From: Psammoneis japonica | Taxonomy: Eukaryota | DNA length: 64,000 bases | Assembly (NCBI GenBank): GCA_008632985.1 | Contig: QPGO01000183.1 | Coordinates: 1 to 64,000 of the forward strand | Reading direction: 5' to 3' | Part shown: positions 2,861-49,719 of the stretch, one piece after another | How the letters are laid out: each line of letters starts with the position of its first letter | Position numbering within the stretch: position 1 is the first letter of the stretch | Notes under the pieces: model-generated | Seen by the model: only the letters and a program-made list of their open reading frames with translations | Told to the model about the DNA's origin: nothing | Database searches by the model: none | Made by a program: the position numbers and the translations under genes

Positions 2861-3291
2861 TCCCTGTGTGTGTGCTGGGCGCTGAAAAAGAAGATGTGTT
2901 GCGACTTTGTCGTTGTGAAAATTGTGAGCCAGTTTAGAGCAGAGAAAATGGGATCGTGCGAATGGGGAATCTTGCCAAATCCCCATTCGTTCGCATTTGG
3001 ATCGCATCAAATCGATCGTGCGCTCGCACTGTGGATCGTGCGAATCAAGCCATCACGCACCATGCACGAGTGATGTCATCGTGTGGAATCACGCTGCCAT
3101 TGTGGGCCAGACGACGAGCCAGTGTGCTTTGCACGGATGCTCTCTCAGCATCCTTCTGGAATTGCCCAAGACCTGGAGCCACGCCCTCCTGTGGTCGTGC
3201 TTCCCAGGTGCGTGTCAACAATGCTGCGTTGCCACGCACAAGAGGCTCATGCACGGTCTCGCCTGGTTGTCCAGCAGCGAGGCACACTGCA
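2861..3291 (-). repeat. gypsy 3' LTR
   Basis: Aligns with 7251-7686; starts TG on the minus strand right after the PPT. Its distal end appears a few bases short. Confidence 0.9.
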
Positions 3292-3299
3292 CACTCCCC

Positions 3300-4980
3300 C
3301 ATGATCAGGGCTGTCAAGTGACAGGATGTCTTGCTGGTGACAGGGTGCAATCTGCTGCAGATTGTGCACATCTGTCAGCGCTCCGTTCTGGACACGCAAC
3401 GCGCCATTGTCATGTGCACGGACAACTCTGGCGGGTCCTTCACAGCTGTCAGAACCGCATTTAGAGGATTGTTCCTGTTTGACAAGCACCAACAGCCCTG
3501 CGTCACATTGATGCTCCTTGCGTTTCTGATTTTCACGCTTGTTGTTTAAGTTGACAAGCTTCTGCTTTCTGGTTTCCATGCACTTCCACTTGGCACGATG
3601 GGCAACAGATGAAACCACATCGCGTCCGAAGACCAATTGCATGGGACTTGCATGCGTGGTCGCAGGCCCCATGCACCGCAGCTCTGGTGTCGAAGGCCAC
3701 TGCGGAGAGGATGCCACTCCATGGGTCATCTTCGTCCAGCTCCATGTCCTGCACTGAAAAGGAACGTACCATGTTACCAAGTGTCTGGTGCACACGTTCC
3801 ACTGTGGCATTCGCCTGTGGATTCCGTTCACTTGTGGGTTTCTTCAAAATCCCACAGTCATTTTTAATCATCTGGCTAAATTCTGCCATAAATTCTGTCC
3901 CACGGTCACAAACCACCTGGGTTGGCCACGGACATCTGCACAGCCACGTTTGTTCCACGACGTTTGCTGCGATGTCTGCGCGTTTCGTAGACACTTCTTC
4001 AATCTCGAACCACCCGGTTGCTGGGTCAATCATTGTGACTGCCCACAATTGCAAAGTGTCCTTTCCGCGTCTTTGAATTTTGTGTGGCCCCATCATGTCC
4101 ATGCATGGAGTCTCCCATGGAATTATCTCTGCGATCTTTTCTGGCAGCTTCCCATGATGCTGCGTTCGGCGTTTTGTCTTCTGGCATCGATCGCTCTCAA
4201 TGCACGTAGAATGCACCGTAGACCTCATGCCAGGCCAGCAGAAGTGCTGGGCAATGGACATTTCCGCACGTGTCTCACCTGGATGACACAGTGTCTCGTG
4301 GTGCCATTCAGTTGGCGGAACCTGCAATGACTGTGGTGCTGCGATTTTGTCTTTATGACAGATCAACTGTCGTGATGACCCTCCCCCACGATGTGCGCGA
4401 ATGGAGCAGTCAGACGAGTCCTTGGCTCGTGAGAGCAGGCGCTTGTCCTTTTGTTGTGCCTTTTGAATGCGCTTGAAGCTAATGGGCAGAGATGCCTCAT
4501 CTTGCGCATCTGCATTAAATGCTTCATGCAAAGGACGACTCGATGGAGTGTCTTTTGCATCCGGATTGGCCTCGGAAGGCAAGCTGGGTGCCAGCCGAAG
4601 GCAACTAAGAGCGTCAGCGACTGGGTTGTGGGTGCCCTTAACATGGCGTAATTCGGGACCGCATTCTTTGCATGTCAACCGCCAGCGCATGACGCGCTCG
4701 GTGTTGAACACTTTGCACGTAAGATTTTTATGATCAGTGTGCACAATTGTGCGATGACCAAGGAGAATCGTTCGAAATTCTTTCAACGTCTCCACAATGG
4801 CGAGCAATTCTCTCTCCGTTGTTGCACAATTTAATTGCGCACTGTTGAGCTTTCTGCTGTAAAAGGCGATGGGTTTATCATCTTGGGATGTGGCTGCTCC
4901 CAATTGACATTTAGAGGCATTGGCATGTATCTCAAAGGGTTCATTAAAATCAGGATGTGATGACAAAACATCATCCGACA
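3300..4980 (-). pseudogene. pol: gypsy pol RNase H + integrase, frameshifted near the 3' end, Tyr-depleted
   Basis: Motifs FYSRKLNSAQ..TERELLAIVETLKEFR, TDHKNL, NPVADALS, HHETLCHPG, IDPATGW, CDRGTEF, NPQANATVERVH. The C-terminal SPMQLVFGRD is in another frame. Confidence 0.92.
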
Positions 4981-4999
4981 TGGTTGGGGTTGGGGTTTG
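4981..4999 (-). repeat. 19-bp telomere-like insertion in gypsy pol
   Basis: Minus strand CAAACCCCAACCCCAACCA; removing it restores the in-frame reading ETVKRV-M-SDDVL. Confidence 0.7.
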
Positions 5000-5335
5000 T
5001 CACCCGTTTGACGGTTTCGAACGCCTCGTCTTCAACGGATGTCCACTCCCACTTGACGGTCTCACTTGCGAGTCGTGTTGGCGGAGCCAAGACTTCAGAA
5101 CGTCTAATCCACGTGTCACGGTGGCAGTTCACCATGCCAATGAATGAGCGCAGGTCGCGTTTGTTGGTTGGGGTCGCGATTCGCTTAATGGCGTCGACTT
5201 CATTGGGTGTTGGTGGCATTCCGTCTCTGTTGACCAGATGACCCAAGTGTTCTAATTGGGTTTGACAGAAATGAGATTTAGTTGCGTTAACTTTTAGTCC
5301 TGCTTTCTGGACCCTCAATGAAACTTCTTCAAGTT
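5000..5335 (-). pseudogene. pol: gypsy RT C-terminal remnant; the RT core is deleted
   Basis: KAGLKVNATKSHF..LEHLGH, LRSFIGMVN, RRSEVLAP, WEWT. Upstream it joins directly to EPHHAR, with no YxDD region present. Confidence 0.85.
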
Positions 5336-7191
5336 TGACGAGCGTGGTGTGGTTCTACACCCTCCTTGAGTTGGACATGGCAGGGTTCTCCCTTCCATTC
5401 TCCTGACATCCCATCAAATGAGGACTCATGGCGTTTCAACAGTGCCAAAAGGTCGTTTTGTTGAACTGCAGAAAGTCCCAATGCCCCTCGCGTTGTGTCC
5501 TTGAGGCAGGCCGGCGCGTGCTTGGCGTCTGAAATGCACGAAATCCGGTCGGTTTCCAAAGACAAGGCTTCTGGATCTTGAAGATAGAAGGAGGTTTCTA
5601 CCGTAGCATCTGCGTGCCTCATTGGCACTTCTCCATTGACTGATGGCCACTCCATCATCTGTTCAGAGAAGACAACATCAATGCCTTGTGTCTCCAGAAT
5701 GTCACGTCCAACAATCACATCGTGCTTGCCCAACTTTCCATTGTGCGCGTGGACGGCATGTTTAAGTTCTGCAGTTTCGGACAATTCTGGCAACCGAAAT
5801 TTAACGGTGCAGTCGTCAGACGCACTGAACGAGCCTGCTGCCGTGGTCCAGTTTGTCTCAGCCGTTGAATGGCTTCGCAGACGTATGCAGCATCGACTGT
5901 CGAGTGGAGTGCTGCTGGCGCCACTGTCCAGCAGTGCCTTGATGGTTTGAGTCTTGCCCTTGCCATGTTCAGTGTTCACAGCTGCAAACAAGATTGGAGT
6001 GAGATGAGTCTTTTTAACTCGTTTGCGGGATTGGCCCACAACACGTGTACAATGGCAATTCAGTTGTTCATTTGTGCATTCATCCAATGTGTTGAAACTG
6101 CCTGCATCGTGTCGGCAAGTGTCCGAATCTTCGGAATCACTTGGGTTGAGGTCGCGGAAGTGATTGAGCTCCTCCTCGCGTGCCTTGCGCTTTTTCTGAG
6201 CGTTGGCAAAGAACTCCTCGACCTTCGATCCGATGAGAGCATTGATGTCTTCCTCATTCCGAGGTTTTGCATTGGGCTTGCTGCCTCCGTCATTGGAATG
6301 TCCAGTCTTGACACGTTTCACGTGGTGCTTGAGCTGACGGCAATCCTCCGTATGATGTCCACAGTTAGTCCCGTGCAGCACACACGACTTCTGGGTGTTC
6401 CGTTGGGTCGTGATCAACGACTCAGGATTGTCCGTTCTATGTCCCCGCTCACGTGGAACCTTGGTGTGTTGGTCCAGGTTACCTTCGGCAAGCTCGACCT
6501 GCTCGATGCGCTTGCAGAACTGTGCAAATTCGGCGATGGCATGCGCCAACGGGTCAAAATTCTGTAGCGTCATGAACTTCTGCCATGCGTTCGGCACACC
6601 GCACTCGAACATGTCGCACAGTTCATCATTGGGTGGTGGTGCCGGTGCTTCTCCATCCTCCATCACGGGTGGAAACTGAGAGACATGGCCGTTAATTTCA
6701 ACAGCCCTCGCGACGTGGTCACGAGCAGAAACCTCTGCGGGCTTGCGCATGAAGCGCCTCAGATGACGCTTCTGCAACAGCACCGCCCCATGTGGGAAGA
6801 TACTTTCCTTTAGCTTCGCGACGCATGCTGCGTACGTAGCGTTGGTTTGAGATGCCTGCTTGTCAGCGGCATCATTGAATGACGTCAGAGCATCGCCCTG
6901 TAGCAGGTCACGCACAAGGGCAAATTTCGCTGGCCCGGTCGTCATGTTTTGTCCTTCGTGCACGCGATCCACGTTGCGCAGAAAGATTGGGAGTGTCTCG
7001 CATGTAGCCACAGAAAGGTGCGGGATGCCCATCTCGTGCATTGGACCATCCGGATCAGCAGGGTTGTTACGTAGCTTGAACGTCTGGCACTCGCCCTGCT
7101 GCAGCTCTTTCTTCTCCGGCCGTGCGAACGGAATCGGCGGCTTGATCCGCTTCTTCATGGTCGTTTTGAGATTTGTCGGTCCCACCAACAT
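5329..7191 (-). pseudogene. gag: gypsy gag + aspartic protease + start of RT
   Basis: 620-aa ORF with Zn-knuckle-like CVLHG..GHHTEDC, protease LLDSGAS and IVGRD; only 2 Tyr. Confidence 0.88.
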
Positions 7192-7250
7192 TTCGTAGTT
7201 TCGTTTCTGTAGATTTCGTCACCTCGCACAACATGCGGGAGCAACATTGC

Positions 7251-7686
7251 TGTGCCCCATGCATGCACCAGGCGCTGAAAAAAGAAGATGTGTTGCAACT
7301 TTGTCGTTGTGAAAATCACGAGCTAGTTTGGAGTGGAGAAAATGGGATCGTGCGAACAGGGAATCTTGCCAAGTCCCCATTCGTTCGCATTTGGATCGCA
7401 TCAAATCAATCGTGCGTTCGCATTGTGGATCGTGCGAAATCAAGCCATCACGCGCCATGCATGAGTGATGCCATCGTGTGGAATCACGCTGCCATTGTGG
7501 GCCAGACAACGGGCTGGTGTGCTTCACACGGGTGCTCTCTTAGCATCCTTCTGGAATTGCCTGAGACCTGGAGCCATGCCCTCCTGTGGTCGTGCTTCCC
7601 AGGCACGTGTTGACAATGCTGCGTTGCCACGCACAAGAGGCTTGTGCACGGTCTCGCCGTGTTGTCCAGCAGCGAGGCATGCTGCA
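7251..7686 (-). repeat. gypsy 5' LTR
   Basis: TG...CA termini; direct repeat of 2861-3291. Confidence 0.9.
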
Positions 7687-9877
7687 CCCTGGAGAAAGCA
7701 ACAAAAGTCAACAATGGGCCATTGGCTCAGAATGCCCAGCCAAATTTCAGGTCAAAACCACTTGCGGGGCTGCGAGGAAGGTGAGGGAGCCATTTTCTTG
7801 CATGCCAACCTGAGGCGTGCATCCGTTGTTGGTCAACAGGCCAGATCTGAAGCCGCGCGCCCTGGAAAAAGCAGCAACAGTCAACAACGGGCCATTGGCT
7901 CAGCTTGCCCAGCCAAATTTCAGGTCAAAACCACTTGCAGGACTGTTGGGAGGGTGAGGGGGTGATTTGTTTGCATGTCGACCTCAGGCATGCAGCCATT
8001 GTGGGTCAACAGGCCAGATCTGAAGCTGCGCACCCTGGAAAAAGCAACAAAAGTCAACAACGGGCCATTGGCTCAGCTTGCCCAGCCAAATTTCAGGTCA
8101 AAACCACTTGCAGGACTGTTGGGAAGGTGAGGGGGTGATTTGTTTGCATGTCGACCTCAAGCATGCAGCCATTGTGGGTCAACAGGTCAGATCTGAAGCC
8201 GCGCGCCCTGGAAAAAGCAACAAAAGTCAACAACGGGCCATTGGCTCAGCTTGCCCAGCCAAATTTCAGGTCAAAACCACTTGCAGGACTGTTGGGAAGG
8301 TGAGGGGGTGATTTGTTTGCATGTCGACCTCAGGCGTGCAGCCATTGTGGGTCAACAGGCCAGATCTGAAGCTGCGCGCCCTGGAGAAAGCAACAAAAGT
8401 CAACAATGGGCCATTGGCTCAGCATGCCCAGCCAAATTTCAGGTCAAAACCACTTGCAGGACTGTTGGGAAGGTGAGGGGGTGATTTGTTTGCATGTCGA
8501 CCTCAGCATGCAGCCATTGTGGNNNNNNNNNNNNNNNNNNNNNNNNNNNNNNNNNNNNNNNNNNNNNNNNNNNNNNNNNNNNNNNNNNNNNNNNNNNNNN
8601 NNNNNNNNNNNNNNNNNNNNNNNNNNNNNNNNNNNNNNNNNNNNNNNNNNNNNNNNNNNNNNNNNNNNNNNNNNNNNNNNNNNNNNNNNNNNNNNNNNNN
8701 NNNNNNNNNNNNNNNNNNNNNNNNNNNNNNNNNNNNNNNNNNNNNNNNNNNNNNNNNNNNNNNNNNNNNNNNNNNNNNNNNNNNNNNNNNNNNNNNNNNN
8801 NNNNNNNNNNNNNNNNNNNNNNNNNNNNNNNNNNNNNNNNNNNNNNNNNNNNNNNNNNAAAGCAACAAAAGTCAACAACGGGCCATTGGCTCAGCTTTCC
8901 AGCCAAATTTCAGCTCGAAACCACTTGCAGGACTGTTGGGAAGGTGAGGGGGTGATTTGCATGCATGTCGACCTCAGGCATGCAGCCATTGTGGGTCAAA
9001 AGGCCAGATCTGCAGCCGCGCGCCCTGGAGAAAGCAACAAAAGTAAACAACGGGCCATTGGCTCAGCTGGCCCAGCCAAACCTCATGTCAAAACCACTTG
9101 CAGGACTGCTGGGAGGGTGAGGGGGTGATTTGTTTGCATGTCGACATTCAGGCATGCAGCCGTTGTGGGTCAACAGGTCAGATCTGAAGCCACGCGCCCT
9201 GGAAAAAACAACAAAAGTCAACAACGGGCCATTGGCTCAGCTTGCCCAGCCAAATCACAGGTCAAAACCACTTGCAGGACTGTTGGGAAGGTGAGAGAGT
9301 GATTTTCTTGTGCGCCAACCTGAGGCGTGCATCTGCCATTGGTCAACAGGCCAGATCTGAAGCCGCGCACCCTGGAAAAAGCAGCAAAAGTCAACAACGG
9401 GCCATTGGCTCAGCATGCCCAGCCAAATTTCAGGTCAAAACCACTTGCAGGACTGTTGGGAAGGTGAGGGGGTGATTTGTTTGCATGTCGACCTCAAGCA
9501 TGCAGCCATTGTGGGTCAACAGGTCAGATCTGAAGCCGCGCGCTCTGGAAAAAGCAACAAAAGTTAACAACGGGCCATTGGCTCAGCTTGCCCAGCCAAA
9601 TTTCATGTCAAAACCACTCGCAGGACTGTTGGGAGGGTGAGGGGGTGATTTGTTTGCATGTCGACCTCAGGCATGCAGCCACTGGTGGTCAACAGGCAAG
9701 ATCTGAAGCCGCGCACCCTGGAAAAAGCAACAAAAGTCAACAACGGGCCATTGGCTCAGCTTGCCCAGCCAAACTTCAGGTCAAAACCACTTGTGGGACT
9801 GTTGGGAAGGTGAGGCAGTGATTTTCTTGCATGCCAACCTCAGGCACACAGCCATTGTCATGGGTCAACAGGCCACA
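7687..9877 (+). repeat. 173-bp satellite array, right segment, spanning the assembly gap
   Basis: The same monomer resumes in register after the TSD; equivalent ORF starts at 7905/8078/8251. Confidence 0.96.
8523..8858. other. assembly gap (336 N) inside the satellite
   Basis: Run of N with satellite on both sides, so the true array length is unknown. Confidence 1.
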
Positions 9878-10227
9878 CAGGAAATGGGAACCCCCCAAGA
9901 TGATGATCATCATGAGGGACCCTTTTGTCAGGCCATGCCGGCTCTCCCCACATCCTTCCACCACATCTTGCAGAGGGGTTGTTTCTCAACTTGAGGGTTT
10001 TCCATTGCAGCTGCAACATCTCGGGGTGTCTCCATGTCGGTGCACCACCCTTGACCAGTTGTCCCGTGACATCACAATGCAATGTCCAACATTCTTTGTC
10101 CGTGTGATGTCAACCTCATGTTGTGACATCAGATTGCATCCTCATGACAGAATGACGTCACAACATGATGTCAGTTTTCTGCCTCCGCAATGAACTGATC
10201 TAGCTCGACCAGGTGACTGTGCTGGTT

Positions 10228-10413
10228 TGAACAAATGCTGACACACTGTCATGGACACAGGCAGTGTAAGTGCTGTTGGCAATTGGTCCACTCTGTTGCT
10301 CAATTGGTGGCCCCGGTGGCACAACATCTCACAATTCTAGAACCTGTTGATGCTGTTCAACACTCTGTCTTGTCTTGCACCCAATTCTCAGCTGTCATGG
10401 CAGCATTTGTTCA
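10228..10413 (+). repeat. copia 5' LTR
   Basis: Aligns with 16109-16292. Confidence 0.92.
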
Positions 10414-10426
10414 CTTTGTCAGAGCC
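10414..10426 (+). promoter_or_regulatory. probable primer-binding site (initiator tRNA-Met type), mutated
   Basis: CTTTGTCAGAGCC directly after the 5' LTR resembles the common copia PBS TGGTATCAGAGCC, with TA->TG. Confidence 0.55.
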
Positions 10427-10879
10427 AACGCACCATGATGTTCATCGCCTGGAATGGGCATCGCGAACGGTGCGACGGCATCATTGCGATCAATCGATTT
10501 TTGCGGCAAGCGCCATGTTGGTCCCATGGTTGCTCGCGCAATCGCTGAGTCCTTTGCATGTGTCAACATTCATGGATGTGAACGACATGCTCTTGGAGAC
10601 CAGAGCTGTGATCCGTCAGACATGACGTTGGCACACGAAATGTTTGATCACGTGGATGGAACATGTTGGCTAAGACATGCAAACATTCGTGACAAAGACA
10701 ACATGATGATTTGTGCATTGAGGTCTGTCATTTGATCACACACATTTCATTGGTCAAAATGCGTTGTCAAATTGTTCAGACACTGTGCATGTGGACACAT
10801 GTCTGTTGGACATCATTGCTTGGGGGTGACACCGAAACGAGAACCACACATTTTTCTCACTTTCCTCCACTCACACAAG

Positions 10880-12340
10880 TGGATGCTCATGCGTCGAAAC
10901 GCGAACAACCATTGACACACCATGGCCACTGCTGCAGCCTTTACCGCCTGTCTTGCGCATTGTGGATGCAATGCACAGACGCGTGCCTGCACAGCCCACC
11001 AAGGCTTTGCTGTGATCGAGGACCTGGAACAGGTCCCTTTGACAGAAATTGCCGACATGACTGAGGGTGTTATGAAGAGCGTGGATGCCGCCACCAACCC
11101 CCAAGTCCACTTTCCACACCTGGCGAATCGCAAGCTCAAGGCACTGCGCGCATGGATTGACTGCCGCAGAGCTCGGAATCAAGAGCCGACCGCTGCTCTC
11201 TTCGCTGGCGACGTCATTGGAACGTGGACGGCACGTCTGACGGAACTGGAGCAATTCAAGTCCGCCGACTTGGACGACGAATCGGCTGCCAAAATGGCCG
11301 TGGAGCTCAAGAACCTGTACGACTGGCCCACCTTCCAAGAGCTGCTGGAGGCCGAGCTGCGTCACCACCACAGTGCCGTCACCGGAGTGCCCCTCATCCA
11401 CCCAATTCGGGAACATGAAGATGTCACCGCCGAGATGTTGGCTGCCACCCACACTGCCATTGACGAGGACCTTGTTGCCACTGCCCGCCTTGCAGGAGCT
11501 CAGCATGCAGGACAGGCAACGACTGCATGATCTCTTGAAGAAGCCAGTGATGGGGGGGCCCGGATGGGCTTTTGTCAAACCTTCCAATCGCAATCGCGAT
11601 GGTCGCACTGCCTTCTTCACACTTGAGAGGCAGGCAGAGGGATCGGCTGCCGCCACCACCAGGAAGAACCGTGCTTGCGCACAGATTGCTGCCGCGAAGT
11701 GCACCGGACGGGGTCGATTTACCTTTGACCAGTGCATTCAGCGTCATCAAATGGCTCACAATGACTTGTCTGAGCTGGACAAACCGGCAGCCGAGACCAA
11801 GAAGGTCTCTGACTTTCTGAAGGGTGTCTCCGACCCCAGGTTGGAAACTGGCAAGAGCACAGTGGATGGAGACCCAAGAAGCTAGCGGATTTCGAGGCAT
11901 GCCAGCAGTGTGTGAAAACTCTGGTCGAGAATGCCAAGAACCGCAACGCTGACACTCGCGGGATTGCATCCGTCCAATGCCGCAACAATCGGCGTGCCAA
12001 CCCTGGTGGGAAGCACCAACCTAAGAAGGACAAGCCCAGGATCCGGGCAGGCCATTGTCCCATTGAAGAGTGGAGTGCTCTTGACGGTCCCGAACGAGAG
12101 CAAGTCCAAAAGCTCCGCGATGCCAAGAAGGCCAAAAAAAAGTGCAAAGCTGCTGCTGCGTCCTCGGAGGCTGAGTCGGTCAATGCTGAAACTCGCGCTG
12201 TGAAGAAAGCAGCCATTGCCGAGCCCACTGCTCAACCTGCTGATGCACCAAAAGACTCCAAAGAGCCTGGTGAACCTGCCGCCAATGCAGGCACCCAGTT
12301 CGGTCGCAGTGCGCATGAGAAACCTCAGAAGGAGGACTGA
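10880..12340 (+). pseudogene. gag: copia gag, broken by frameshifts
   Basis: Consecutive ORF pieces (10922-11530, ~11520-11885, 11912-12340) with CoDi-gag-like motifs GVPLIHPIR, RDGRTAF, KKVSDFLKGVSDPRL. Confidence 0.75.
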
Positions 12341-12403
12341 ACAGTTGCGCCAGCACCAAAAGGCACAGAACCGAATGTTGCTAAACCTGCTGGCACCATT
12401 TGT

Positions 12404-15400
12404 TTGTCTGGGCGATTCTCAAAGGACACACGTGTCTCTTTGTCATCTGCTGGAAATTCAGATGACGAAGCCACCACTGATTTGGACTCGCACGCTGACA
12501 CGTGTGCTGTTGGGTCCAATTTTGTGATGTGCTCTGACATCGACAGAACTGTCGTGGTGCACCCCTGCTCCGAAGAGCATGCACCAATGGAAAACATTCC
12601 TATTTGCACGGCTGCCACCGTGTGGGTTGATCCAACTGATGGACAACCACACCTGCTGCCAGTCCACGAGGCTGTGTTTTTTGGGGACAAGATGACTGAC
12701 ACCCTCCTGTGCCCCAACCAACTGCGAGCGAATGGGCTGACCGTCCAAGACACCCCTCGCCAGTTTGATCGGACTGGCACACACTCTGTTTCTTTTCCTG
12801 ACTCGAAGATCAGGATGCCATTGCGAATGCGAGGCGTTGCTTCAGTCTTTGATTCACACAAGCCAACAAAGGAGGATCTGGAGAACCTCCCCCGGCTGGA
12901 ACTCACATCACCCCTGAGATGGGAGCCTTCTGCTGATGCCCTGGCGCAAAAGGAGGAAGCGCATGAATGTGCCAGTGTGCGCCAAGGATCAGCAAAGTCG
13001 GGCGGACGGTCGACGATGATGAATGTCGGATGGCACGCCAGAAATGGCAGAAGGCCAGACCAAGGAGATCTGCAAGGAATGCAGGATGCACCAGGAGGTG
13101 TCCACCCCACACAGCCCCTGGCAGAACCTGGCCGAGGCATCCATTCGTGAGTTGAAGAAAAGAGTCCGTGTGACTCTACGCCGGACTGGCGCTCACAGGC
13201 GACTTTGGTCCCACAGCGCCAAATGGATGTGTGACATCCGACGCATGATTGCAACTGGCACATCGGACATGGGAGGACGAGTCCCAGAAGAGGAGGTGAC
13301 AGGTTCGACACCCGACATCTCTTCCCTCTCTCTCTTTGATTGGCATCAACCTGTTTGTAGCTGCATGCCTGTGGCGGAGTTCCCACAAGAAAAGAAGTGC
13401 ATTGGCCGTTGGCTCGGAGTGGCTGACAACTGCACTGACGATGTGGCATTCATCATTTTGCCCGAATCAGGCAAACCCATCATTCGGAAGGATGTGTGGG
13501 CCATGCCGGAGGATGACCTTAAAACTCCGGCGATCCAGACGGATCTTGCATCAGTCGATCAAGCTTTGATTGAGCGGCTTGGCATCCCGGAAAAGGACAC
13601 CAGTGCTGACTTCCCTGAACTCCCTGACGACTTCATGGACGAATGGGACGATGCCATTGAACCGTGGAACCCGACGCTTCCAAACCGGAAGCTGATGAGC
13701 ACACCCCGGAAGGGCCAGATGAATGTCTCACAGCTCAAGTCATGTTGCCACGAGGAGGCGAGCTGACTCATGCTAGGGTCATTGCACGCAAGCGAGATGG
13801 CGACGGGGTTCCTGTTGGCACTAGGAACGACAACCCTGTCCTGGACTTGAGGATGTACGACGTGGAGTTCCCTGATGGATCCACTGATTCCTGCACTGCC
13901 AACGTAATTGCAGAGAACCTGTTCGCTCAGATCGACTCTGAAGGGAATGCCTGCCAGATCATGAAGGAAATGGTCGATCACCGATGTGATGCCCATGCCA
14001 CAACGGCCGATGACGGGTGCACAACGACTAAGACTGGCAGGCGTGCTCCCAGGAGGACGACTGCAGGCTGGGACCTGCAAGTCGAATGGAAGGATGGGAC
14101 TGCATCATGGGTTCCTCTCAAGGATTTGAAGGAGTCCAATCCAGTCGAGGTTGCTGAGTGCGCTGCAGCAAACAAAGCTGCCAGTGAACCAGCCTTCAAC
14201 TGGTGGGTCCGAGACGTCTTGCATCGCAGGTCAAGGATCCTGAAGAAAGTCAAGTCGCGTCACTGGAAACACACGCATGAGTTCGGAATTGAACTCCCGA
14301 AATCTGTCAAGGAAGCCATGGAGATGGACAACAGAACGGGGACCGACTTCTGGTTCAAAGCCATCGAGAAGGAAATGCGCAACGTCATGCCTGCGTTCGA
14401 ATTCCGCGATGACGACACTGTGCCGGTCGGGTGCAAACACATTGACTGTCATGTGATCTTCGACATTAAGAGCACCCTCCAACGTAAAGCGAGGTTCATG
14501 GCCAGAGGCCATCAAACCGATCCACCCAAGGAATCGACATGTTCCAGCGTGGTGTCGCGTGACAGCGTTAGGGTGGCATTCAGTGTGGCAGCCCTGAATG
14601 ACCTGGAGGTCCTGAGCGCTGACGTTCAGAATGCCTGTTTGAATGCACACACTAAGGAAAAGTGTTGCACCACTGCTGGCCTGGAATTTGGGAAGCAGAA
14701 CAAAGGAAGGCCGGTGATCATTGTCCGTGCCTTGCATGGTCTCAAGTCTTCAGGTGCAAGATTTAGGGAACACCTGGCAGCTGCTCTGCGTGACGCTGGG
14801 TTTGAGTCTTGCAAAGATGGCCCGGACATCTGGATGCAAGCTGCGGTTAAGCCGGATGGCTTCAGGCACTGGGAATGTGTGCTTGTCTGTGTGGACGACT
14901 TGTTGTGCGTCTCCCATGAACCTCAGAAGGTCATGGACCACATGAGCTCCAGGCACACGCTCAAGGACGGAAGCATCTGCGAGCCGGAAGAGTGCTTGGG
15001 CGCCCAGATTAGAAAGCACCAGCTGTCTGACTCGGATGGTGAGACACGCTGGGACATGTCCTCTGACCTTCATGTCAAAAGGGCATTAGCTGACGTTGAA
15101 TTGGAGCTTAAGAAAACTGACAGGCGTCTTCCGACGAAGGCGTCGACACCCTTGAGCTCGGGACATGGGCCTGAACTGGACGGTTCACCTGAGTTGAACG
15201 CCAAAACGGCTGACTGCTGTCAAGGCCTTGTCGGTGTGCTGCGGTGGGTGGTTGAACTGGGGCGAGTGGACATTTTTGTCACTGTCTCGCTCATGTCCTC
15301 CTGCTTGGTGGCACCACGAGTTGGACACCTGGACGAGGTGCTCCATGTCTTTGCATGCTTGAAGGCTCATTCTAAGTCTGCACCAGTGTTTGACAACACT

Positions 15401-15904
15401 GAGCCCATCTTTGACGAGAGTCGCTTCACCAAGTGTGATTGGGAAGAACATCACCCTGGCGCGGCTGAACCAATGCCGCCAAACATGCCGGAGGCACGCG
15501 GGAATGGCGTGACTGCCACTTGCTTTGTCGATGCTGATCACGCCGGATGCCGTGTGATGCGCAGGTCCCACACTGGGATCCTGATCTTCATCCAACGAGC
15601 ACCCATCTTGCATTGCTCTAAGCGGCAGAATGCTGTAGAGTCCTCCACTTTTGCGTCGGAGTTTGTGGCCATGAAGACTGCAGTGGAGCAAATTGAAGCC
15701 TTGTGTTGCAAGCTTCGGATGCTCGGAATCCCCATGGATGGGGCCACTGACGTTTTCTGTGACAATGAAGCTGTCTTCAAGAACTCAACTAAACCAGAGT
15801 CCACTTTGAAGAAGAAGCACAATGCAATTGCCTGTCACAGGACTCGTGAGGCACAAGCCGCTGGAACAGCGCGCATTGCTTGGGAAGACGGACGCACCAA
15901 CTGA
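12404..15904 (+). pseudogene. pol: copia pol (PR, partial IN, RT, RNase H), frameshifted and Tyr-depleted
   Basis: LDSHADTC (PR), PHSPWQNLAE (IN), RKARF, DVQNACL, ALHGLKSSG, CVDDLL (RT), FVDADHAG, CDNEAV, KKKHNAIACH (RNase H). Confidence 0.93.
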
Positions 15905-16108
15905 GTTGTTGCCTGGACCAAAGCTCCGGGAAATCACAAGTCACATCCTGTGGCAAGTCCCAAAAGGGGACAAACTGAACGGGTTTGCCGCGCAGGTGCG
16001 GCTTTTTCCCACCCCCAAAACACAACTGCTGCCCTGGAACAGGGCAGCATCAGGTTGCATTTGTCTGTCGATCTGACCCGAGTGGAGCTAGTGTCAGTTC
16101 GAGGGGAC

Positions 16109-16292
16109 TGAACAAATGCTGATGTGCTGTCATGGATGTAGGCAGTTTAAGTGCCAAAGGCGATTGGTCCACTGTCGCTCAATTGGTGGCCCCGGTGGCA
16201 TGACATCTCACAACTCTAGAACCTGTTGATGCTGTTCAACACTCTGTCTTGTCTCACACCCAATTCTCAGCCATCATGGTGGCATTTATTCA
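16109..16292 (+). repeat. copia 3' LTR
   Basis: Follows the PPT; ends ATTTATTCA. Confidence 0.92.
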
Positions 16293-16601
16293 GGTTTCCC
16301 TTGGGACTCAAACCCCCATTTCCCGGGTTTGAATCTGTCATTGCGCAAGTCACATGCGTGCATTTTCTCACAAGCAGAGACAGTGGAGAGAAATGGCTCC
16401 ACTGTTTTGCCATCCAGCAACAACTGCCGTGCTGCATTTTTGATCGAGCACTGCAACAACTGCTCCTTTGCCCCGGGCACCACACGGCCGATGGTCGCTG
16501 TCGAACAAGCTGCTTTTGTTCATGCAAACAACAAACAAACATTCAACCATCACCACTGCTGTGTGAAATCAGGACTGTTCATCCTGTCTTTTTCCCTGGC
16601 G

Positions 16602-17080
16602 TCACTCTTTCTGCAAGTTTTCGTCACCGCAAGGAATGCAGCATGCCGCTGGTCTCCGTTCATTTTTGCCACATTCAGTCTTGCACTCTTTGCACTTCAA
16701 ACCAAAAAGCTCCCACAACGTGTCACACAAACGGAGCTGCAACAGCAGGGTGTGATCATGTTCCTTGCAAGTTGCGTGGCTTTTCAGGTGTTGCTTTTCC
16801 TTGCATCCGCAACAACTGAAGCACAGGAGCTGATCATCACCCGTCCTGGAAGAGCATGTCTCGTGCAAAATTTGTCCACATTTGTTGCAAGGCACTCCGT
16901 TGCTTGCCCGTTCCCCGCACAGGTGGCATTCCAACTCCTCTGTTTCATCTGACAAAACCATGTTTGCCTTTTTGTCTTCCACTCTTTTCCAACAAGCTTT
17001 CGCCAATTCCTCATTGATGTTTTCCTCCGGTTCCCATGACTTTTCTCTGGTCAACCAAAGGACGTGGCATGTCCGATCAC
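16602..17080 (-). pseudogene. decayed chromodomain + PHD-finger-like gene fragment
   Basis: RTCHVLWLTREKSWEPEENI resembles the chromo motif Y.V.W...sWEP.eNl, followed by CHLC..CNKC..HETC..CFSC (C4HC3 spacing). Confidence 0.55.
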
Positions 17081-17910
17081 AATGTCAGCTTCCAAACGCA
17101 CACTGCGATTTCAAATGCACCCACCTGTGTTTCCTGCCATTGCAGCATCTGTCCTTGACGTGGTTGTGTTTTCCTCTGTTGAAGTGTCTGCCCTTGATGT
17201 GTTTGTAAGATCAAGGCTGACAACTGACACCTGTGTCTGATGAAATGAATTCGTCATTGTGTTTTCGACTTTTGATCGCTTTTTGTGCTTGGACACAATT
17301 GCAAAGTCACGGTTGCATGTTCTCATTGCACAGTTTTTGAATTGCATTTAGTTTCATTCTTTTCTGTGTTTTTCATTGTTTCAATCAAGCATCAATGTTC
17401 TCAAATGAACATTGACAACCATGTCGACCTGTTGTGTTAAGAACATTGTTCTTTCCTCCCATTTGAAACAAAATTTTCCTCAAATGAAAATTGGGTTTTC
17501 ATTGGTTCACTTTTGAATGTGTGATTTTCCACAATTGAAATTTGAGTTTTCATGTGTGTTCTTTTTTAAAGTGCTTGCTTCATCTACGTTGTTGAATGAA
17601 ATGCATTGTGCAATCACACAATTGGGTGGGAGGACGTGCGCGTGCGCGTGCTGCTCTTTCAGCGTGTGGAACATGCATGGGGCCCTGCATGCAGGGCTTG
17701 TCTGCAAATGTGCAGTGCAGCAGAATGCACGTGTTTTGCGCTTTCGGCGATTGAGAGCACATTTGCTGCTCCACCTCATTTTCACAAATCCTCTGCGCTG
17801 TGCAAGCCCCCTTTTGTCCATCAACAGAACTGCGATCCCTCCCCCTTTTTCCATCCAATCATCTTTTGGGCCTCTTCTTGAATCTTGCATCTTGCTCTTT
17901 TGCGCATTGA

Positions 17911-18800
17911 ATGATCCCAAACGACACCATGGATGACATGGCAAACAATTGGGGGTGCAGTTTGGTTGCCGTTAGCCCGCGTGGCTTAAAATGCAATGGC
18001 GAAGAATTGATGAATTCTTCCATGGACATCAGCCATCACAAGCAGTTAGAAGAAGTTGTTTTTCGTCACTTTGATGGCGAATTCCTGCTGTACAAAGTGA
18101 CACCAAACGGCTCCGATGCAAATCTGTTTGCAGTTAATTCTGTGACGGGAGGGCACAACGACGGATGTTTGATTGCATGTGGAAGTCATGTGGCCAGTGA
18201 TCATGGGCCGGTCCACTGTTGGACTGCCAGCACGTTCAGTGCAGAACATGGTCCCAGCACGGCAATGCATCCGGACAACGTGTTTAACTCTTTTACATGC
18301 AATCACACCATTGCGCTGCCGCATCACATGCCAGGCACTCTGAGCTCCGCGGAGCTCAGTGAGTGCAAAAACGATTGTCTCAACCACATTCATCTCCGTT
18401 GTTTGATGCAGGCTGTAAAGAAGGTGCCAACCACTGCATTGTTTTTAGAATTGATGCCAGCAAACAATGGCGCAACACTCAGCGACGATTTTCTAGAATC
18501 TCTCGGTCGGTTGGCTGACCACCATTCCTTTGAGATTGTTGTTGACGAAATTGTGACGGGCGGATGCAGTGGATGCATGCTGTCATGCATGGCTGAACCC
18601 AAGCATTTTGTTGATGCTGTTGCCTGTGTTGCCATGGGCAAATGGCTGCATGCTGGCACAGTTTTGGCAAAACCCAATCATTGCAATTGGTCCTGCAGCA
18701 TGACATCATCTCTTCCCAATCGTGGTGCCTCCACGGGCATGGATTGTAAAGAAATTGTCATGACATGGAAGACTGCAACTTCACAGTTCCATCTCACAGC
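17911..18800 (+). pseudogene. decayed class-III PLP aminotransferase-like sequence
   Basis: ALFLELM...LGRLADHHSFEIVVDEIVTGG.SG...AMGKW matches the class-III pattern (DE..TG.GR.G ... GK). One Tyr in the ORF; it runs into repeat sequence at ~18810. Confidence 0.55.
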
Positions 18801-19258
18801 CAAGCATTTGTGGCCCTCTTTCCCACTTCCTTGTCCCCTTTTCCCACTCCCTTCTTGGCTTCACTTTCCCTTTAGCCTTTGTTTTTGCCCTTTGCCCGCT
18901 GCCAACTGCCCGAACCCCAACCCCTTGTCAGTGTTGCAAAACATTCGATTTTGGACAAATCTGTGCTTTTGGTGGCAAAATTTTGTTCGCAAGTGAGAGA
19001 CCGAGCAAAATTTGAGCAAATGTTCATTTTTTGCACAATTTGGGTCATGCGCAGCTGGAACACGTCCCTTGGCTATTTTCCACCTTTTGTGATTTCTGCC
19101 ATTTTGCACCCTCGGGCATTTTGTGCTTTCTGAATGATTTTGTGCCTCTGGCCATTTTGTGCCCATGTTGCACCCTCAGCCATTTTGCACCCTTTGTCAC
19201 AAGCAGATGTGCTCCAGCTCCATGTGGGACCTTGTGCTGCTGGGCTGTGGCGCAATCA

Positions 19259-19700
19259 TCCAAAGCTGGCACGCCAACTTTAGATCCAAAGTCGGCATGC
19301 CAATTTTGTGCAAAGTTGGCATGCCGACTTTTGACCCAAAGTTGGCATGCCGACTTTTGACCCAAAGTTGGCATGCCGACTTTTGACCCAAAGTTGGCAT
19401 GCCGACTTTTGACCCAAAGTTGGCATGCCGACTTTTTGCCCAAAGTTGGCATGCCAAGTTTTGACCCAAAGTCAACATGCTGAGTTTTGCTCCAAAGTTG
19501 GCATGCCAAGTTTTGACCCAAAGTTGGCATGCCGACTTTTGACCCAAAGTTGGCATGCCGACTTTTGACCCAAAGTTGGCAGGCCGACTTTTGACCCAAA
19601 GTTGGCAGGCCGACTTTTGGCCCAAACGTGGCACGCCGACTTTTGACCCAAAGTTGGCACACCAAGTTTTGTGCAAAATGCCAAGTTTTGATCCAAAGTT
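19259..19700. repeat. 26-bp palindromic minisatellite, array 1
   Basis: Unit GACCCAAAGTTGGCATGCCGACTTTT; core AAAGTYGGCATGCCRACTTT is self-complementary. Confidence 0.95.
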
Positions 19701-19714
19701 TGCACACCACATCA

Positions 19715-20088
19715 GATGCATTCCAGATGTGGGTGGGAACTCTTTTGACATTGGGCCCGCAGAATTTGGCGGTGATTAAAACACCAATGATTGTCAACAG
19801 AAAATCAGGCAATTTTGCCAGTGCACAAACTCGCCCATGATTGAAGCACATCATTTTTTGCTTGGCCAGTTGCATTCTTCAGACATTGAAGAATGTGGCT
19901 GGCGCGCTGTTGTCACTCTGAATCTGTTGCATGAAACATCTGGGGCTTTGCAAAACAGCGAGTTTGGACAATTTTTTTTTGAATGTCACTCACAGAAAGG
20001 CACGTGCAAAACATGCGACGGATGACAAAAATTGTTTGTGTCACAGGCCAGTGCCACGAGCTCCCACCTGGGGCTGCTGGAGCACGTC
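19715..20088. mobile_element. MITE, GACG..TCCAG TIR family, TSD ATCA
   Basis: ATCA|GATGCATTCCAG...CTGGAGCACGTC|ATCA; also present in the duplicated units at 26450-26819 and 35446-35774. Confidence 0.8.
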
Positions 20089-20260
20089 ATCATGAAGCAG
20101 ACTCCACCTTCCCACCATTTTTTCAATTGATCCACTCAACATGACCCAGCAAGATGAGCATCCAAAGACCAAAGACACCCCAAAAACAAAACATCAAGAA
20201 AGCAAAGAATGGTTGCCAGCGGTGCTCTGCACTTCTGGGTGTTCTGCGTTTGTGCTTGCA

Positions 20261-20680
20261 GATGCGCTCCAGCTCTGGGTGGGACCTCGCACTGCTGAGC
20301 TGTGTCATTGACAGTTTTTTGGATCACACCGCATGTCACGCACGCAGAAAGGTGCGCGGCTTTTGTGAAATTTTGTGTCATTTTGTGGCACACTTGCTCA
20401 AGCAGATTGGCTTTTGTGGGCGTGCAGAGCACGGACATTTGAGCGACTCTTGACATTTTTTTCTTCTGCGCCATTCACAAATGTCTTGAGAATGGCGCAG
20501 GGCAGGTGCATTTGCAAAAACGTCAAGTGGCGATGGCCACAATTGTGCCAAAAACTTGGCCGTTTGTTTGATGTTGAAGACAAAATTGTCCATCAACTGG
20601 ATTCTTGCAATGCGGAGCTCGCACGCAGAATTCTGCGGGCCCAATGTCACAAAAAGTCCCACCTGGGACTGGAGCCTATC
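20261..20680. mobile_element. MITE, same TIR family, TSD TGCA
   Basis: TGCA|GATGCGCTCCAG...CTGGAGCCTATC|TGCA; duplicated at 26995-27386 and 35947-36335. Confidence 0.8.
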
Positions 20681-20684
20681 TGCA

Positions 20685-21080
20685 GACACGTTCCAGCCCT
20701 AGGTGGGAGCTCGCAGTGCTGACGTGTGACAACAACAATTTTTGTCATCCGTCGCATGTTTCGTGCGTAGATTTCTGCGTGTGACATTTAAAAAAAATTG
20801 TCCAGACTCGCTGTTTTGCGAAACCCCAGATGTTTTATGTGACAAATTTGTGGAAACAACAATGCGCCAGTTGCATTCTTCAATGTCTGAAGAACGCAAC
20901 TGGCCAAGTAAAAAATGATTTACTTCAATCATGTGCGAGTTTGTGCATTCGCAAAATTGCCTCATTTTCTGTTGGCGATCATTGACATTTTAATTGCCGT
21001 GTGATTTTACTGTGGAGCTCGCACGCAGAAGTCTACGGGCCCAATGTCACACGGATTCCCACCTGCGTCTGGAACGCGTC
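20685..21080. mobile_element. second MITE inserted in tandem at the same TGCA site
   Basis: TGCA|GACACGTTCCAG...CTGGAACGCGTC|TGCA; absent from copies 2 and 3 of the unit; an inverted relative of 19715-20088. Confidence 0.8.
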
Positions 21081-21589
21081 TGCATCAGAATTTAGATGCC
21101 GTCACCGTCATTGGCACCTCACAAGCAAAAATGGCGCGGGTGGCCCTTTGTTGCTTTTTGCCATTGCATCAAACACAAAACCTTGCTCAGATTGTGGCGT
21201 GATCTTGGCAGGATTCTCTGCCATGCTGCTTCAATGAGCATTTGACCACCTCTTTTGCAGCGCAGCTTTTTCACAAAATGCAACAACAACCATGTGAGGG
21301 CAGCTGCAATGACAACTCAAGTCACAAGGACAGCACAACTGCTGCCACTGCCACCACCATTGCCAACAGCTCAGGGGATGTCCAGCAAAACATTCAACGC
21401 TGTGCCGCACACTGTTGCGCCATGCACGGTCACAGACGTCAACACAAAATTTGGCAAGGTGCTCCCGGCTCATGATCTGCCAGGGAGAGGTTGCAAGATC
21501 AAAGACAGCTCCCAAAAGTCAGCTGACAATGACGCTGCAGCCAAAAAGTCCGCTGATGATGACACTGCAGAAAACACAGTGTGGACATT

Positions 21590-23135
21590 TGAACAATTTT
21601 TTGTGGGGCATCAAAGTCCTCATGGGACACGCATCATAAACTCCCTCAGCAGACTCAGCGCTGATTGTGCGTCAGCACATTTCACACTGAGATTTCTTTG
21701 CAGGTGGCGAACCTGCCAAGCAGCATCGCAGAAAGACATGCTCAATTGGCGGCAACAATTTCACCGAAAATCATCTGTTGTGTTGCGACTCGTTTGTCAC
21801 AATGAAAAACATTGATGGCGCAACAACAATGATTTTGCAACACTCACACGAGTCTTGTCAGTGTTGCAAAACATTCGAGTTTGAACAAACCTGTGCTTTT
21901 GGTGGTGAAAAACCGTTCGCAAGTCAGAGACTGCACAAAAATCATGCAAATGTCATTTTTGTGCATGATTTGGGTCACGTGCGGCTGGAACACGTCAGCA
22001 GTGACACCAACAAGAAGAAGCAACAGAGACCACTCTGTGGGTTTGTGCCTTGCACACTCACTTTGTTCTTGGTGGGCCTTGCTGGTGCTGTCACAAAAGG
22101 AGCTGCACACCATCGGTGGAGGACAAAACACATGCAAAGCTTGTCTGCCATGAAATTGTCAGGCTTTTTGGCCCTTTCTTGGTTTCAAAAGACAAGGCAA
22201 GGGCACCCCAAAAACAAAATTCTTTTCACATTGGACGTGGCCAACGTGTTGGTCAATTTCATTTTGGGGCAATCGGAGGAGTCTTGAGGGCTCAGACACA
22301 CAAGCATGCCAGATTGGCGGCCAAGGGATGTTTTGTGCCCCTTTTTGGAAGGAGGCAACAAACAATGGGTCGCAGTTGCACAATCACACAATCTCAGATT
22401 TTGGTCTCAAATCTTGTTGTGCCATGGACTGCATGCAACAAACCTGTGTCAACACCAAATGGGTCTGTTGTTGATTGTGATGTGTGCAAATGCCTGCAAG
22501 GCATGCCACCTGATGTTCTGTCACTTGACAACTTCTCAGTGCAGATCCAGCCCTGCAGAGCAGAATCCATCAAAACTCCCTCCGAACTCTGGAGTGTTGC
22601 AAAACTTGCAGGTTCCGCAGAAACAATTTGTCCTGCCCAAAGCACACGCAAAAAGCATCACAAAATTCGAGTGTGGCCGCTGGTGGGATCTCCTTTTCAA
22701 GACAATCTTGAAGCTGTGCAAGTCATTTCCTTGACCCCAACCTTCCTTCCGGCATTGCTTGACAGCTTCTGCACTCATTGTCTGCCTTCAAACTGTTGTT
22801 GGGCTCTGCTGTTGCTCTCCTGTCCATCGACTGGAGAAAAAATCTCATCATTTTTGTGAGGGCTGTCAGTGAACAGGGGGACATGTTTCATTGATTTGGG
22901 GGTGTTTCGTGGGTGTCTGTCCATCAGTCCAAACTTGCGAGCAGAATCGACATGTCTGCGTGCCTGTGTTGCAGGGTCTGTCCATTGACTGGAGAAAAAA
23001 TCTCATCATTTTTGCATTGTCTGTCTGTCAACAGGAGAGATGTTTCATCGATTCAGGGGTTTGTCTGTCAACCCTCAGGGAAAAACAACACCTCATGACC
23101 CAACCCCAATCCCTCCCATCTCACACTCCCTCAAT
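21590..23135 (+). repeat. segment duplicated at ~29055-32150, where it carries three extra MITE insertions
   Basis: Near-identical text (e.g. 22041 ff vs 30094 ff); supplies the empty sites for the MITEs at 30579 and 31480. Confidence 0.88.
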
Positions 23136-23550
23136 GCAGTCAAATGCAGGCCTCGCTGATCCAATTGGCAGCGTGCAGGGCACACATCTGGTGTTTGTTG
23201 TTTTGCGCGTTGCTTTTGCCCGATTGCAATGTTCGCGAATGCAAACAACAAAATTTGCTCCAACTGGCCGCAAATGTGGTGTTTGTTGTTTTCACAAATA
23301 AAATCCTGAAGAGACATGCAGACACGTTGGACATTTGACTGCATGGGTTGCTGACATCAAATTTTCAAGACGACGCGCAGAAAGACAGCACGATGCATCA
23401 AGAAAGACACACATGACGTCAATGATGACGCAAGTTCAACAAACACCTTGTGTTCGAACAAAAGTTGCAAAAAATGGGTTCGTCACAAATCTTCACCGAC
23501 AATGTCTGATGGACAAGCAATCGCAGCAACAACAAATGCCAAACACTGGA

Positions 23551-23947
23551 GACGTGCTCCAGCTCCAGGTGGGACCTCGCACCACTGAGCTGCGACATCA
23601 ACAGTTTTTTGGATCGCGTCGCATGTCGCGCACGTAGATGGCTGCGTGTGATGTTCTACGAAATTGTTTCATGCTTCCTGTTTTGCGAAGCCAAAGGCTT
23701 TCTATTTTCAACATTTGTGACAATGAAAATGGGCTGGGTGTGTTCTTCAATGTCTGCAGAGTGTGCCCACAGCAACCATTGTTCATGTGCTCAAAGTGTG
23801 AAGGAGGAGACACATTCGTAAAATTGCCTCTTTTTCTGTTGGCGATCATTCACATTTTCATTGCTTGACAAATTTGCTGTGGAGCTCGCACGCAGGATTC
23901 TGCGGGCCCAATGTCACACTGAGTCCCGCCTGGGATTGGAACCCGTC
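23551..23947. mobile_element. MITE, same TIR family, TSD TGGA
   Basis: TGGA|GACGTGCTCCAG...TTGGAACCCGTC|TGGA. Confidence 0.8.
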
Positions 23948-24008
23948 TGGATCGGCAACCCCTGCATGTGTGGGCACACACATGTAAAAACATTCATGTG
24001 CAACAGGT

Positions 24009-36628: not shown

Positions 36629-36629
36629 C

Positions 36630-49615: not shown

Positions 49616-49719
49616 AAATTCAGGCTTAATTAAATGTGACGGTCATGTCAATGACCAAACTCGCTAGACCAACTGATCGGATTTGAGACACTGACTAAGA
49701 GGTTCTGTCACAGTGTCAC

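Follow-up and report, generated by a model that had tools for sequence, protein, structure and literature searches.

Tyrosine-poor retrotransposon frames point to TpA hypermutation of repeat DNA in the diatom Psammoneis japonica

How does a retrotransposon come to hold an open pol frame of 747 codons that encodes a single tyrosine? The question is raised by a copia-type element in a 64,000-nucleotide stretch of the diatom Psammoneis japonica (GenBank assembly GCA_008632985.1, contig QPGO01000183.1, positions 1 to 64,000 of the forward strand), which was analyzed as a whole and which we call the window. An earlier note on this DNA, made from the letters alone, had picked out the long frame with its one tyrosine and proposed that conserved tyrosines had become cysteine or histidine through A-to-G changes at TpA. 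The frame is there as described: it lies at 13661..15904 on the plus strand, runs from stop to stop, encodes the reverse transcriptase (RT) and RNase H part of copia pol, and contains 1 Tyr, 30 Cys, and 31 His. All seven strings that the note had quoted (CVDDLL, NACL, ALHGLKSSG, STCSSVVS, ECLG, CSKRQ, and IACH) occur in its translation. Our answer is that repeat and foreign DNA in this diatom very probably undergoes hypermutation of TpA to TpG or CpA after integration.

The frame matches the RVT_2-type reverse transcriptase family (Pfam PF07727; E = 3.6e-9, 37 bits against a cut-off of 31.6, residues 255-433), as Ty1/copia elements do. A protein search in which 8000 candidates were scored returned 1002 relatives at E <= 0.001, the top one being 67% identical across residues 200-747 and one being named from Fragilaria crotonensis. 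Among the 120 relatives listed of these 1002, PF07727 is present in all, and tyrosine has a median of 3.96% (Cys 1.35%, His 2.38%) and never falls below 3.07%. We aligned the frame with its 60 best homologues using MAFFT and took as conserved those columns with a consensus of at least 60%, which gave 540 columns, 435 of them identical in the window copy. The picture at the 26 conserved tyrosine columns is quite different: 16 now hold Cys (TGT/TGC), 7 His (CAT/CAC), and 2 Phe, with one Tyr kept, so that 25 of the 26 are replaced and the YVDD motif reads CVDD. Tyr is found in 59 or 60 of the 60 homologues at 15 of these columns, and the note's own possible refutation, that homologues carry Cys or His at the same places, does not hold, with Cys in 1/60 at one column and His in at most 10/60. 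Counting Tyr-to-Cys/His changes against other substitutions had been named beforehand as the test, and the excess is clear: such changes fill 23 of the 26 Tyr columns, whereas the other conserved columns, 514 in number, have 82 changes (Fisher p = 8e-15).

What happened at the remaining columns bears on the direction of change. Other residue classes are retained at 73-100%, the exceptions being Ile (48%, mostly replaced by Val, Met, or Thr) and Met (60%). The 105 replacements at conserved columns comprise 37 single TA-to-TG/CA steps, 12 CpG steps, 7 other transitions, 23 transversions, and 26 multi-step changes. Besides the 23 Tyr columns, 14 replacements are thus one TA-to-TG or TA-to-CA step from the consensus codon (Ile to Val, Met, or Thr; Lys to Glu; Thr to Ala; Met to Val; Arg to Gly; Val to Ala). 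Both sets agree in making TA the ancestral state, as had been claimed.

A second element in the window tells the same story. It is a Ty3/gypsy-type long terminal repeat (LTR) retrotransposon at 2878..7690 on the minus strand, lying within a 173-bp satellite and bounded by LTRs at 2878-3295 and 7271-7690 (420 nt, 90.2% identical). Its RNase H and integrase open reading frame (ORF) at 3536-4999 on the minus strand was recognized by Pfam (RT_RNaseH 4.6e-26, Integrase_H2C2 4.4e-8, and rve 2.7e-5, the last below its cut-off), and a second ORF lies at 5332-7218 on the same strand. Both are about as poor in tyrosine as the note had said: its figures were 1 Tyr in 482 aa and 2 in 620 aa, and the stop-to-stop frames have 1 in 488 aa and 3 in 629 aa. 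Compared with 69 normal relatives, the ORF at 3536-4999 has lost Tyr at six of six conserved-Tyr columns, which now hold His (4) or Cys (2). Cys results from an A-to-G change on the sense strand and His from one on the antisense strand; their ratio is 16:7 in copia and 2:4 in gypsy.

The LTR pairs provide the strongest test. The two LTRs of a retrotransposon are identical at insertion, so that a TG in one LTR facing a CA in the other marks a former TA hit after integration on opposite strands. Across the 420 columns of the gypsy LTR pair there are 10 such TG/CA sites, together with 3 sites of TA against TG or CA, 7 of CG against TG or CA, 6 other transitions, 3 transversions, and 2 indel columns. 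No site retains TA in both LTRs, whereas CpG survives in both at 24 sites and has changed in one at 7. The loss probability of TA, derived from the ratio of half-changed to oppositely changed sites, is ~0.93 per TA per LTR, against ~0.13 per CpG and ~1% per other site. The copia LTRs, 86% identical, add 8 TG/CA sites. The loss of TA is therefore post-integration and falls on both DNA strands, and A:T-to-G:C change at TpA is common to the copia columns (23/26), the gypsy columns (6/6), and the LTR pairs (10 and 8), in keeping with the note's view of Cys and His as top- and bottom-strand products. In 15 alignments of paralogous copies within the window, 278 adjacent double differences were counted; 136 of them are TG against CA, and the second most frequent class has 23. 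The idea that LTRs and element interiors differ in how much TA they have lost was entertained and then abandoned.

The note had centered its account on the copia element; its mutation pattern stands, but whole repeat blocks are affected rather than one pol gene, and CpG decay runs in parallel. Over the window as a whole, the observed/expected ratio of TpA is 0.19, and a 1-kb map of this ratio is bimodal. The largest depleted block, at 1..42300, takes in the satellite, the gypsy and copia elements, multi-copy repeats, and the relic of an aminotransferase gene, with TpA at 0.00-0.28, CpG at 0.11-1.04, and TG and CA at 1.2-2.8, and its border grades over 42000-42800. Two more depleted blocks lie between host genes, one at 49750..53950 (TpA 0.01-0.07, CpG 0.14-0.27, borders within ~100-300 bp), the ORFs of which contain no Pfam domains, and one at 58300..62050 (TpA 0.02-0.17). 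The block at 42800..49700 has normal composition (TpA 0.43-0.69, CpG ~1.0), and this block together with 54000-58250 and 62100-64000 spans TpA 0.43-0.78, again with CpG at ~1.0. Pooled depleted DNA (44.7 kb) has 3.8 TA/kb and ratios of 0.06 for TpA, 1.71 for TG, 1.68 for CA, and 0.45 for CpG, against 40.9 TA/kb and 0.58, 1.14, 1.15, and 1.00 in pooled host blocks (13 kb). AA stands at 1.34 in depleted DNA.

The depleted blocks are contiguous over 4-42 kb, and their borders with host DNA are 100-500 bp wide and come within 100-500 bp of host ORFs, those of LCIB and ALDH among them. In all, about 49 kb is depleted, made up of LTR elements, the 173-bp satellite, and unclassified repeats; the depletion is confined to foreign or repeat DNA and spares the host genes, with one gene relic that is not a transposable element (TE) also affected. 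Frames of at least 200 codons contain 0-3 Tyr each in depleted DNA and 8-31 in the four of the host blocks. The host control of the note, an ORF for an LCIB-type beta-carbonic anhydrase at 54273..55475 on the plus strand (LCIB_C_CA, E = 1.8e-53; closest relatives diatom proteins, with identity up to 77%), is indeed rich in tyrosine, with 9 in 401 aa. The cause of the tyrosine loss is thus regional, not genic.

Which TAs are lost depends on the base that follows. Those that survive lie mainly in TTAA (42), TTAG (29), CTAG (17), and GTAA (17), and ATAT, ATAC, and GTAT are absent. We fitted an additive per-strand model in which the rate is set by the base 3' of A, over 10 symmetric NTAN classes and three block sets, and obtained relative T-A-X rates of 1 for T, 0.64 for C, 0.26 for G, and 0.15 for A. 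The fit gives chi-square values of 8.3, 7.9, and 11.4 for the three block sets, and twice the log-likelihood difference from a context-free model is 228.9 on 3 degrees of freedom. The fitted dose increases from gypsy (1.3) through copia (2.3) to the rest (3.0), parallel to CpG loss, and the trinucleotide ratios of depleted to normal DNA are 0.02 for TAT, 0.05 for TAC, 0.13 for TAG, and 0.20 for TAA. Because T-A-T and T-A-C mutate fastest, TAY, the tyrosine codon, is the preferred target, and tyrosine is nearly erased as a result. Of the Tyr codons changed in copia, 23 in all, the model expects 15.0 to have become Cys, and 16 have done so.

The same changes explain why the frame is open. A step from TA to TG or CA creates no stop and destroys TAA and TAG, making long open frames a by-product: TAA and TAG occur at 1.75 and 1.25 per kb in depleted DNA, against 9.9 and 8.3 in host blocks, and TGA is little changed (21.8 against 19.7). 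The note's contention that, unlike repeat-induced point mutation (RIP), this process inactivates by missense and not by nonsense is thereby supported. When sequences of the depleted composition were simulated 100 times with a first-order Markov model, 10.4 +/- 3.0 frames of at least 200 codons arose per 49 kb, where 23 are observed, and normal composition gives 0.1 in 13 kb; many of the long overlapping frames in depleted DNA are chance products. The copia frame is not one of them, since its 747 codons exceed the longest simulated frame (475 codons), and it is the relic of a real ORF.

The frame is the RT-RNase H part of a dead Ty1/copia-type element, a degenerate LTR retrotransposon on the plus strand at 10228..16292 that consists of a 5' LTR, a gag-pol relic, and a 3' LTR (LTR pair by blastn, interior by tblastn). 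The 5' LTR (10228..10413, 186 nt, plus strand) and the 3' LTR (16109..16292, 184 nt, plus strand) are direct repeats with the TG...CA termini (TGAACAAATG...CATTTGTTCA) of Ty1/copia elements; the target-site duplication is 4 bp (GGTT) at best and unconvincing. Full-length homologues cover 12350-15931 in tblastn, their residues upstream of RT matching 12350-13745. Some 200 aa, probably from the integrase region, are missing at 13015/13023, and the frame changes near 13680, so that the open frame is no sign of activity; the deletion, the frameshift, the CVDD motif, and the replaced tyrosines all speak against an intact, potentially active copy. The Pfam rve domain was found neither for copia in the window nor in the homologues P0001 and P0015. 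Directly after the 5' LTR, 10414-10440 resembles a putative primer binding site of the tRNA-iMet type with one TA-to-TG change, judged against what we take to be the tRNA-iMet consensus. Contigs rebuilt from the public sequencing run X1 have a summed depth of 4,800-14,250 over 11001-16400 and of 208-249 beyond 16400, single contigs having 30-64; this fits a copia family on the order of a hundred copies, the summed depth not itself being a copy number. A short-fragment protein search for further copies of this family found none above 61% identity.

Taken together, these results make it very probable that a process acting after integration turns TpA into TpG or CpA, with A:T becoming G:C wherever the mutated A follows T, on either strand. 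It targets repeat and foreign DNA and spares the adjoining host genes. Being fastest at T-A-T and T-A-C, it deprives TE proteins of tyrosine, leaving Cys after a hit on the sense strand and His after one on the antisense strand; and as it makes no stops and removes TAA and TAG, dead elements retain long frames. Ordinary decay of CpG to TpG or CpA in methylated repeats proceeds alongside it, more slowly. The data above show the direction of change, the hits on both strands, their timing after integration, the influence of the 3' neighbor, and the targeting of whole blocks; that the process serves genome defense is our inference. The high probability belongs to the process and not to any enzyme. 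As to the chemistry, a tentative candidate is an ADAT/TadA-like enzyme that deaminates adenine in DNA; we favor it over the mispairing of a modified base because tRNA adenosine deaminases also act at a U-A step.

Several points weigh against this reading. All of it is drawn from fixed differences, and no new mutation was seen directly. Paralogues mostly share TG/TG (1163) or CA/CA (1185), against 136 TG/CA differences, so that most of the depletion in these families may have come before or after their duplication. In the context model, the host blocks are assumed to represent the ancestral NTAN frequencies, and its site-by-site prediction of Cys or His is no better than 50:50 (log-likelihood -15.72 against -15.94). 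Run X1, from a library of unrecorded type, may be the very sample that was assembled, so that a read-level artifact is unlikely rather than formally excluded. Finally, the window bears on the process and not on the enzyme, and repetitiveness, foreignness, or chromatin state may each be the trigger.

The closest rival keeps the target and changes the chemistry: in silenced DNA, the TpA palindrome might carry a modified base, either 5-hydroxymethyluracil (5hmU) or 5-formyluracil from a TET/JBP-type dioxygenase or N6-methyladenine, that mispairs or is mis-repaired (T to C or A to G) with no direct deamination. TpA is palindromic like CpG, the site of maintained methylation, and both decay to TG/CA in the same blocks; moreover, the near equality of TG and CA gains in the pooled depleted DNA fits a mark on both strands. 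In dinoflagellates 5hmU is located at TpA and TpC, and 5-formyluracil mispairs with G. A literature search on 5hmU and diatoms, however, returned no paper joining the two, and the preference for T-A-Y over T-A-R is equally compatible with a deaminase, and we consider a modified base an unlikely, though serious, alternative. Far less probable is RNA editing before integration, in which an ADAR- or ADAT-like enzyme would edit transcripts that are then reverse transcribed. The excess of Cys over His in copia would fit such an enzyme, and ADAR prefers a 5' U for its A-to-G changes, as given in the available text of a preprint (bioRxiv 10.64898/2026.01.13.699255). But His requires antisense hits, of which there are 7 in copia and 4 in gypsy; TG against CA in the LTRs of one element requires hits on both strands after the LTRs were duplicated; the satellite and other DNA that is not of retroelement origin are as depleted as the retroelements; AA is not depleted; and the 16:7 ratio is what sequence context alone predicts.

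Ordinary CpG decay, or a TA-poor composition inherited from the start, can practically be dismissed as the sole cause. CpG is indeed low in the same blocks, and paralogues in the window differ by CG against TG or CA at 248 places. Yet TAY is ancestral at the affected copia and gypsy columns, and over the gypsy element CpG is near normal (0.76-1.04 in the 1-kb map) where TpA is at 0.13-0.28. CpG ancestors predict 0.26 TG/CA sites in the gypsy LTR pair and 10 are observed, which upholds the note's dismissal of CpG decay for these sites, and an inherited composition is at odds with two normal relatives, L001 and L002, with TpA at 0.60 and 0.76; these were the only relatives that a metagenome scan for the DNA of a copia RT fragment from the protein databases (P0250) retrieved.

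There remains the sequence itself, as modified bases in repeats could be miscalled so that TA is read as TG or CA. An artifact of assembly or polishing is excluded, and one of sequencing more generally is most improbable, although the doubt about run X1 and an N gap in the window count in its favor. Contigs rebuilt from X1, at a 31-mer depth of ~60, reproduce the depleted sequence: 95% of the 31-mers sampled from 48001-58000, a region of both depleted and normal DNA, are present in them, and against depleted sequence that appears to be single-copy they show 0 differences at 16735-17000 and 3 at 16398-16763. Nothing from runs X2 and X3 aligned on 11001-17000. An artifact would also have to leave 747 codons without a frameshift, though a real deletion and a real frameshift lie upstream, and to make paralogous copies differ as TG against CA at fixed sites. 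Across the copies of the copia family in X1, there are 1,103 variable places, with 969 transitions and 134 transversions. The 40 listed of these, a mixture of 24 transitions with 16 transversions, are changes that only the window copy has, none at a Tyr column; those involving TA are at 11618 and 16157, where the family has TA and the window does not, and at 14467, where the window has TA and the family CA.

Tyrosine-free pol proteins in other public data sets argue further against an artifact. P0250 contains 0 Tyr, 13 Cys, and 10 His. Among the 150 best gypsy-type cluster representatives, 6 have less than 1% Tyr; they are 33-61% identical to the window gypsy ORF and hold solely Cys or His at seven columns with a Tyr consensus, their choices between the two differing. 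Pol proteins without tyrosine or nearly so in public collections include P0307, P0311, P0352, P0384, P0389, P0364, and P0250. Presumably, such proteins were predicted by gene callers from TpA-hypermutated relics, be it in other assemblies or in metagenomes.

Other features of the window complete the picture of its depleted and normal DNA. The 173-bp satellite array occupies 1..2800 and again 7640-9970, split by the gypsy element and by the N gap at 8523-8858; its 173-nt consensus contains zero TA, the polymorphism among monomers is mostly CG/CA/TG, and with no TA in the consensus it is uninformative as a source of timing. The depleted DNA contains several multi-copy repeats. Arrays of a 26-bp tandem repeat lie at 19208-19750, 25835-26480, and 35063-35400, and the repeat unit that holds them is present in three copies in the window with 86-94% identity. 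The relic of a class-III aminotransferase-like gene at 17911..18993 on the plus strand (361 aa; 1 Tyr, 21 Cys, 22 His) matches Pfam Aminotran_3 at E = 1.3e-4, below the cut-off, and in the Atlas 24 of its 30 feature hits are Aminotran_3 clusters, with a best score of 0.94; a PDB search returned matches only at E >= 0.21. One of the closest Atlas clusters, of L-lysine 6-transaminase fragments, is 92% bacterial. The relic may be captured or foreign DNA rather than a decayed host gene. Pfam found nothing credible on 63 further ORFs of at least 120 aa in the depleted blocks, two matches among them having E ~0.007-0.008, far under their cut-offs. In the normal block, neither a Pfam family nor a credible relative in the Atlas was found for an ORF of 1469 codons at 44547-48953 on the minus strand (31 Tyr, 47 Cys), which encodes a large host protein of no known family.

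These observations have consequences for genome analysis. Gene callers will emit Tyr-free proteins from depleted DNA, as ~10 chance ORFs of at least 200 codons are expected per 49 kb of it, against ~0.1 in 13 kb of normal DNA, and some such proteins are already public. LTR dating is distorted in such genomes: with 30 of the 41 differing columns of the gypsy LTR pair at TA- or CG-derived sites, an age from raw identity is ~4.5-fold too high. Finding the signature in diatoms, a major and experimentally tractable group of phytoplankton, makes the question of the writer enzyme testable, and a natural A-to-G editor of DNA would be of practical interest.

Among known systems, the RIP of ascomycete fungi is alike in that it, too, hypermutates repeats in blocks after they have integrated, by transitions alone and on both strands, and spreads only a little way into neighboring DNA. 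In RIP as described in the sources at hand, however, C:G becomes T:A mostly at CpA, which creates TpA and stops, whereas in the window TpA is lost and CpA and TpG are gained; the diatom process is chemically the reverse and removes stops. Diatom TEs are CpG-methylated, which accounts for the parallel loss of CpG, and diatoms have a DNMT4 related to RID, with function unknown, according to the parts of PMC9998398 consulted. Decay of CpG likewise yields TG and CA from a palindromic pyrimidine-purine (YpR) step in the same blocks, but it cannot remove TA and is ~19 times slower per site than the loss of TA in the gypsy LTRs. Our literature searches returned no description of TA-to-TG/CA mutation in diatoms, and look-ups of terms for dinucleotide bias, RIP, and deamination in the accessible text of PMC2806351 and 10.1101/2025.10.24.684338 found nothing.

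ADAR and APOBEC enzymes also drive hypermutation of selfish elements by deamination, and ADAR favors a 5' U, but they act before integration and on one strand, and APOBEC gives C-to-T or G-to-A changes. Hyperediting of RNA by ADAR-type enzymes and editing of cDNA by APOBEC were considered as candidates and are ruled out by the LTR pairs and the mix of Cys and His; ADAR would act on the transcribed strand only, and satellite DNA that is not transcribed is depleted too. TadA and ADAT2-ADAT3 resemble the process in their target, the natural tRNA substrate being A34 after U33, a U-A step. In some Escherichia coli mRNAs, TadA turns UAC (Tyr) into a Cys codon, and adenine base editors evolved from TadA preferred YAC in their early versions. 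We know of no natural deaminase that edits adenine in chromosomal DNA in this manner.

The nearest likeness is found in mutation-accumulation lines of the chlorarachniophyte Bigelowiella natans (Mettrop et al., bioRxiv 10.64898/2026.01.13.699255). According to the preprint text available, two integrated viral regions mutate there at ~6e-7 per site per generation, and 210/211 and 20/20 of their new mutations are A to G or T to C, all at TpA; reverse transcriptase and DDE domains are overrepresented in TpA-depleted coding sequences; and the authors, who cite the editing of DNA by ADAT2 of amphioxus, propose that an ADAT2-like enzyme deaminates adenine in DNA. As in the diatom, the changes are A to G or T to C at TpA according to strand, are confined to foreign DNA, and leave TpA loss with CpA and TpG gain in clustered 1-kb windows. 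The evidence there is experimental and here comparative; the host is a rhizarian there and a stramenopile here, the word "diatom" being absent from that text; and the targets there are giant-virus and virophage DNA still rich in TpA (3.3% and 9.2% of dinucleotides), whereas LTR retrotransposons, satellite, and unclassified repeats are near saturation here (observed/expected 0.06). The same text gives neither a 3'-neighbor preference nor an LTR-pair test, so that the rule of T-A-Y over T-A-R and the proof from LTR pairs of post-integration hits on both strands are new beyond it. It is possible, if speculative, that diatoms and chlorarachniophytes, and perhaps much of the stramenopile, alveolate, and rhizarian (SAR) lineage, share an enzymatic defense that deaminates adenine at T-A-Y in silenced repeats and foreign DNA; such a system would do in nature what adenine base editors do in the laboratory, killing elements by missense with their frames left open. 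The window is a diatom instance, near saturation, of a signature otherwise known from this one 2026 preprint.

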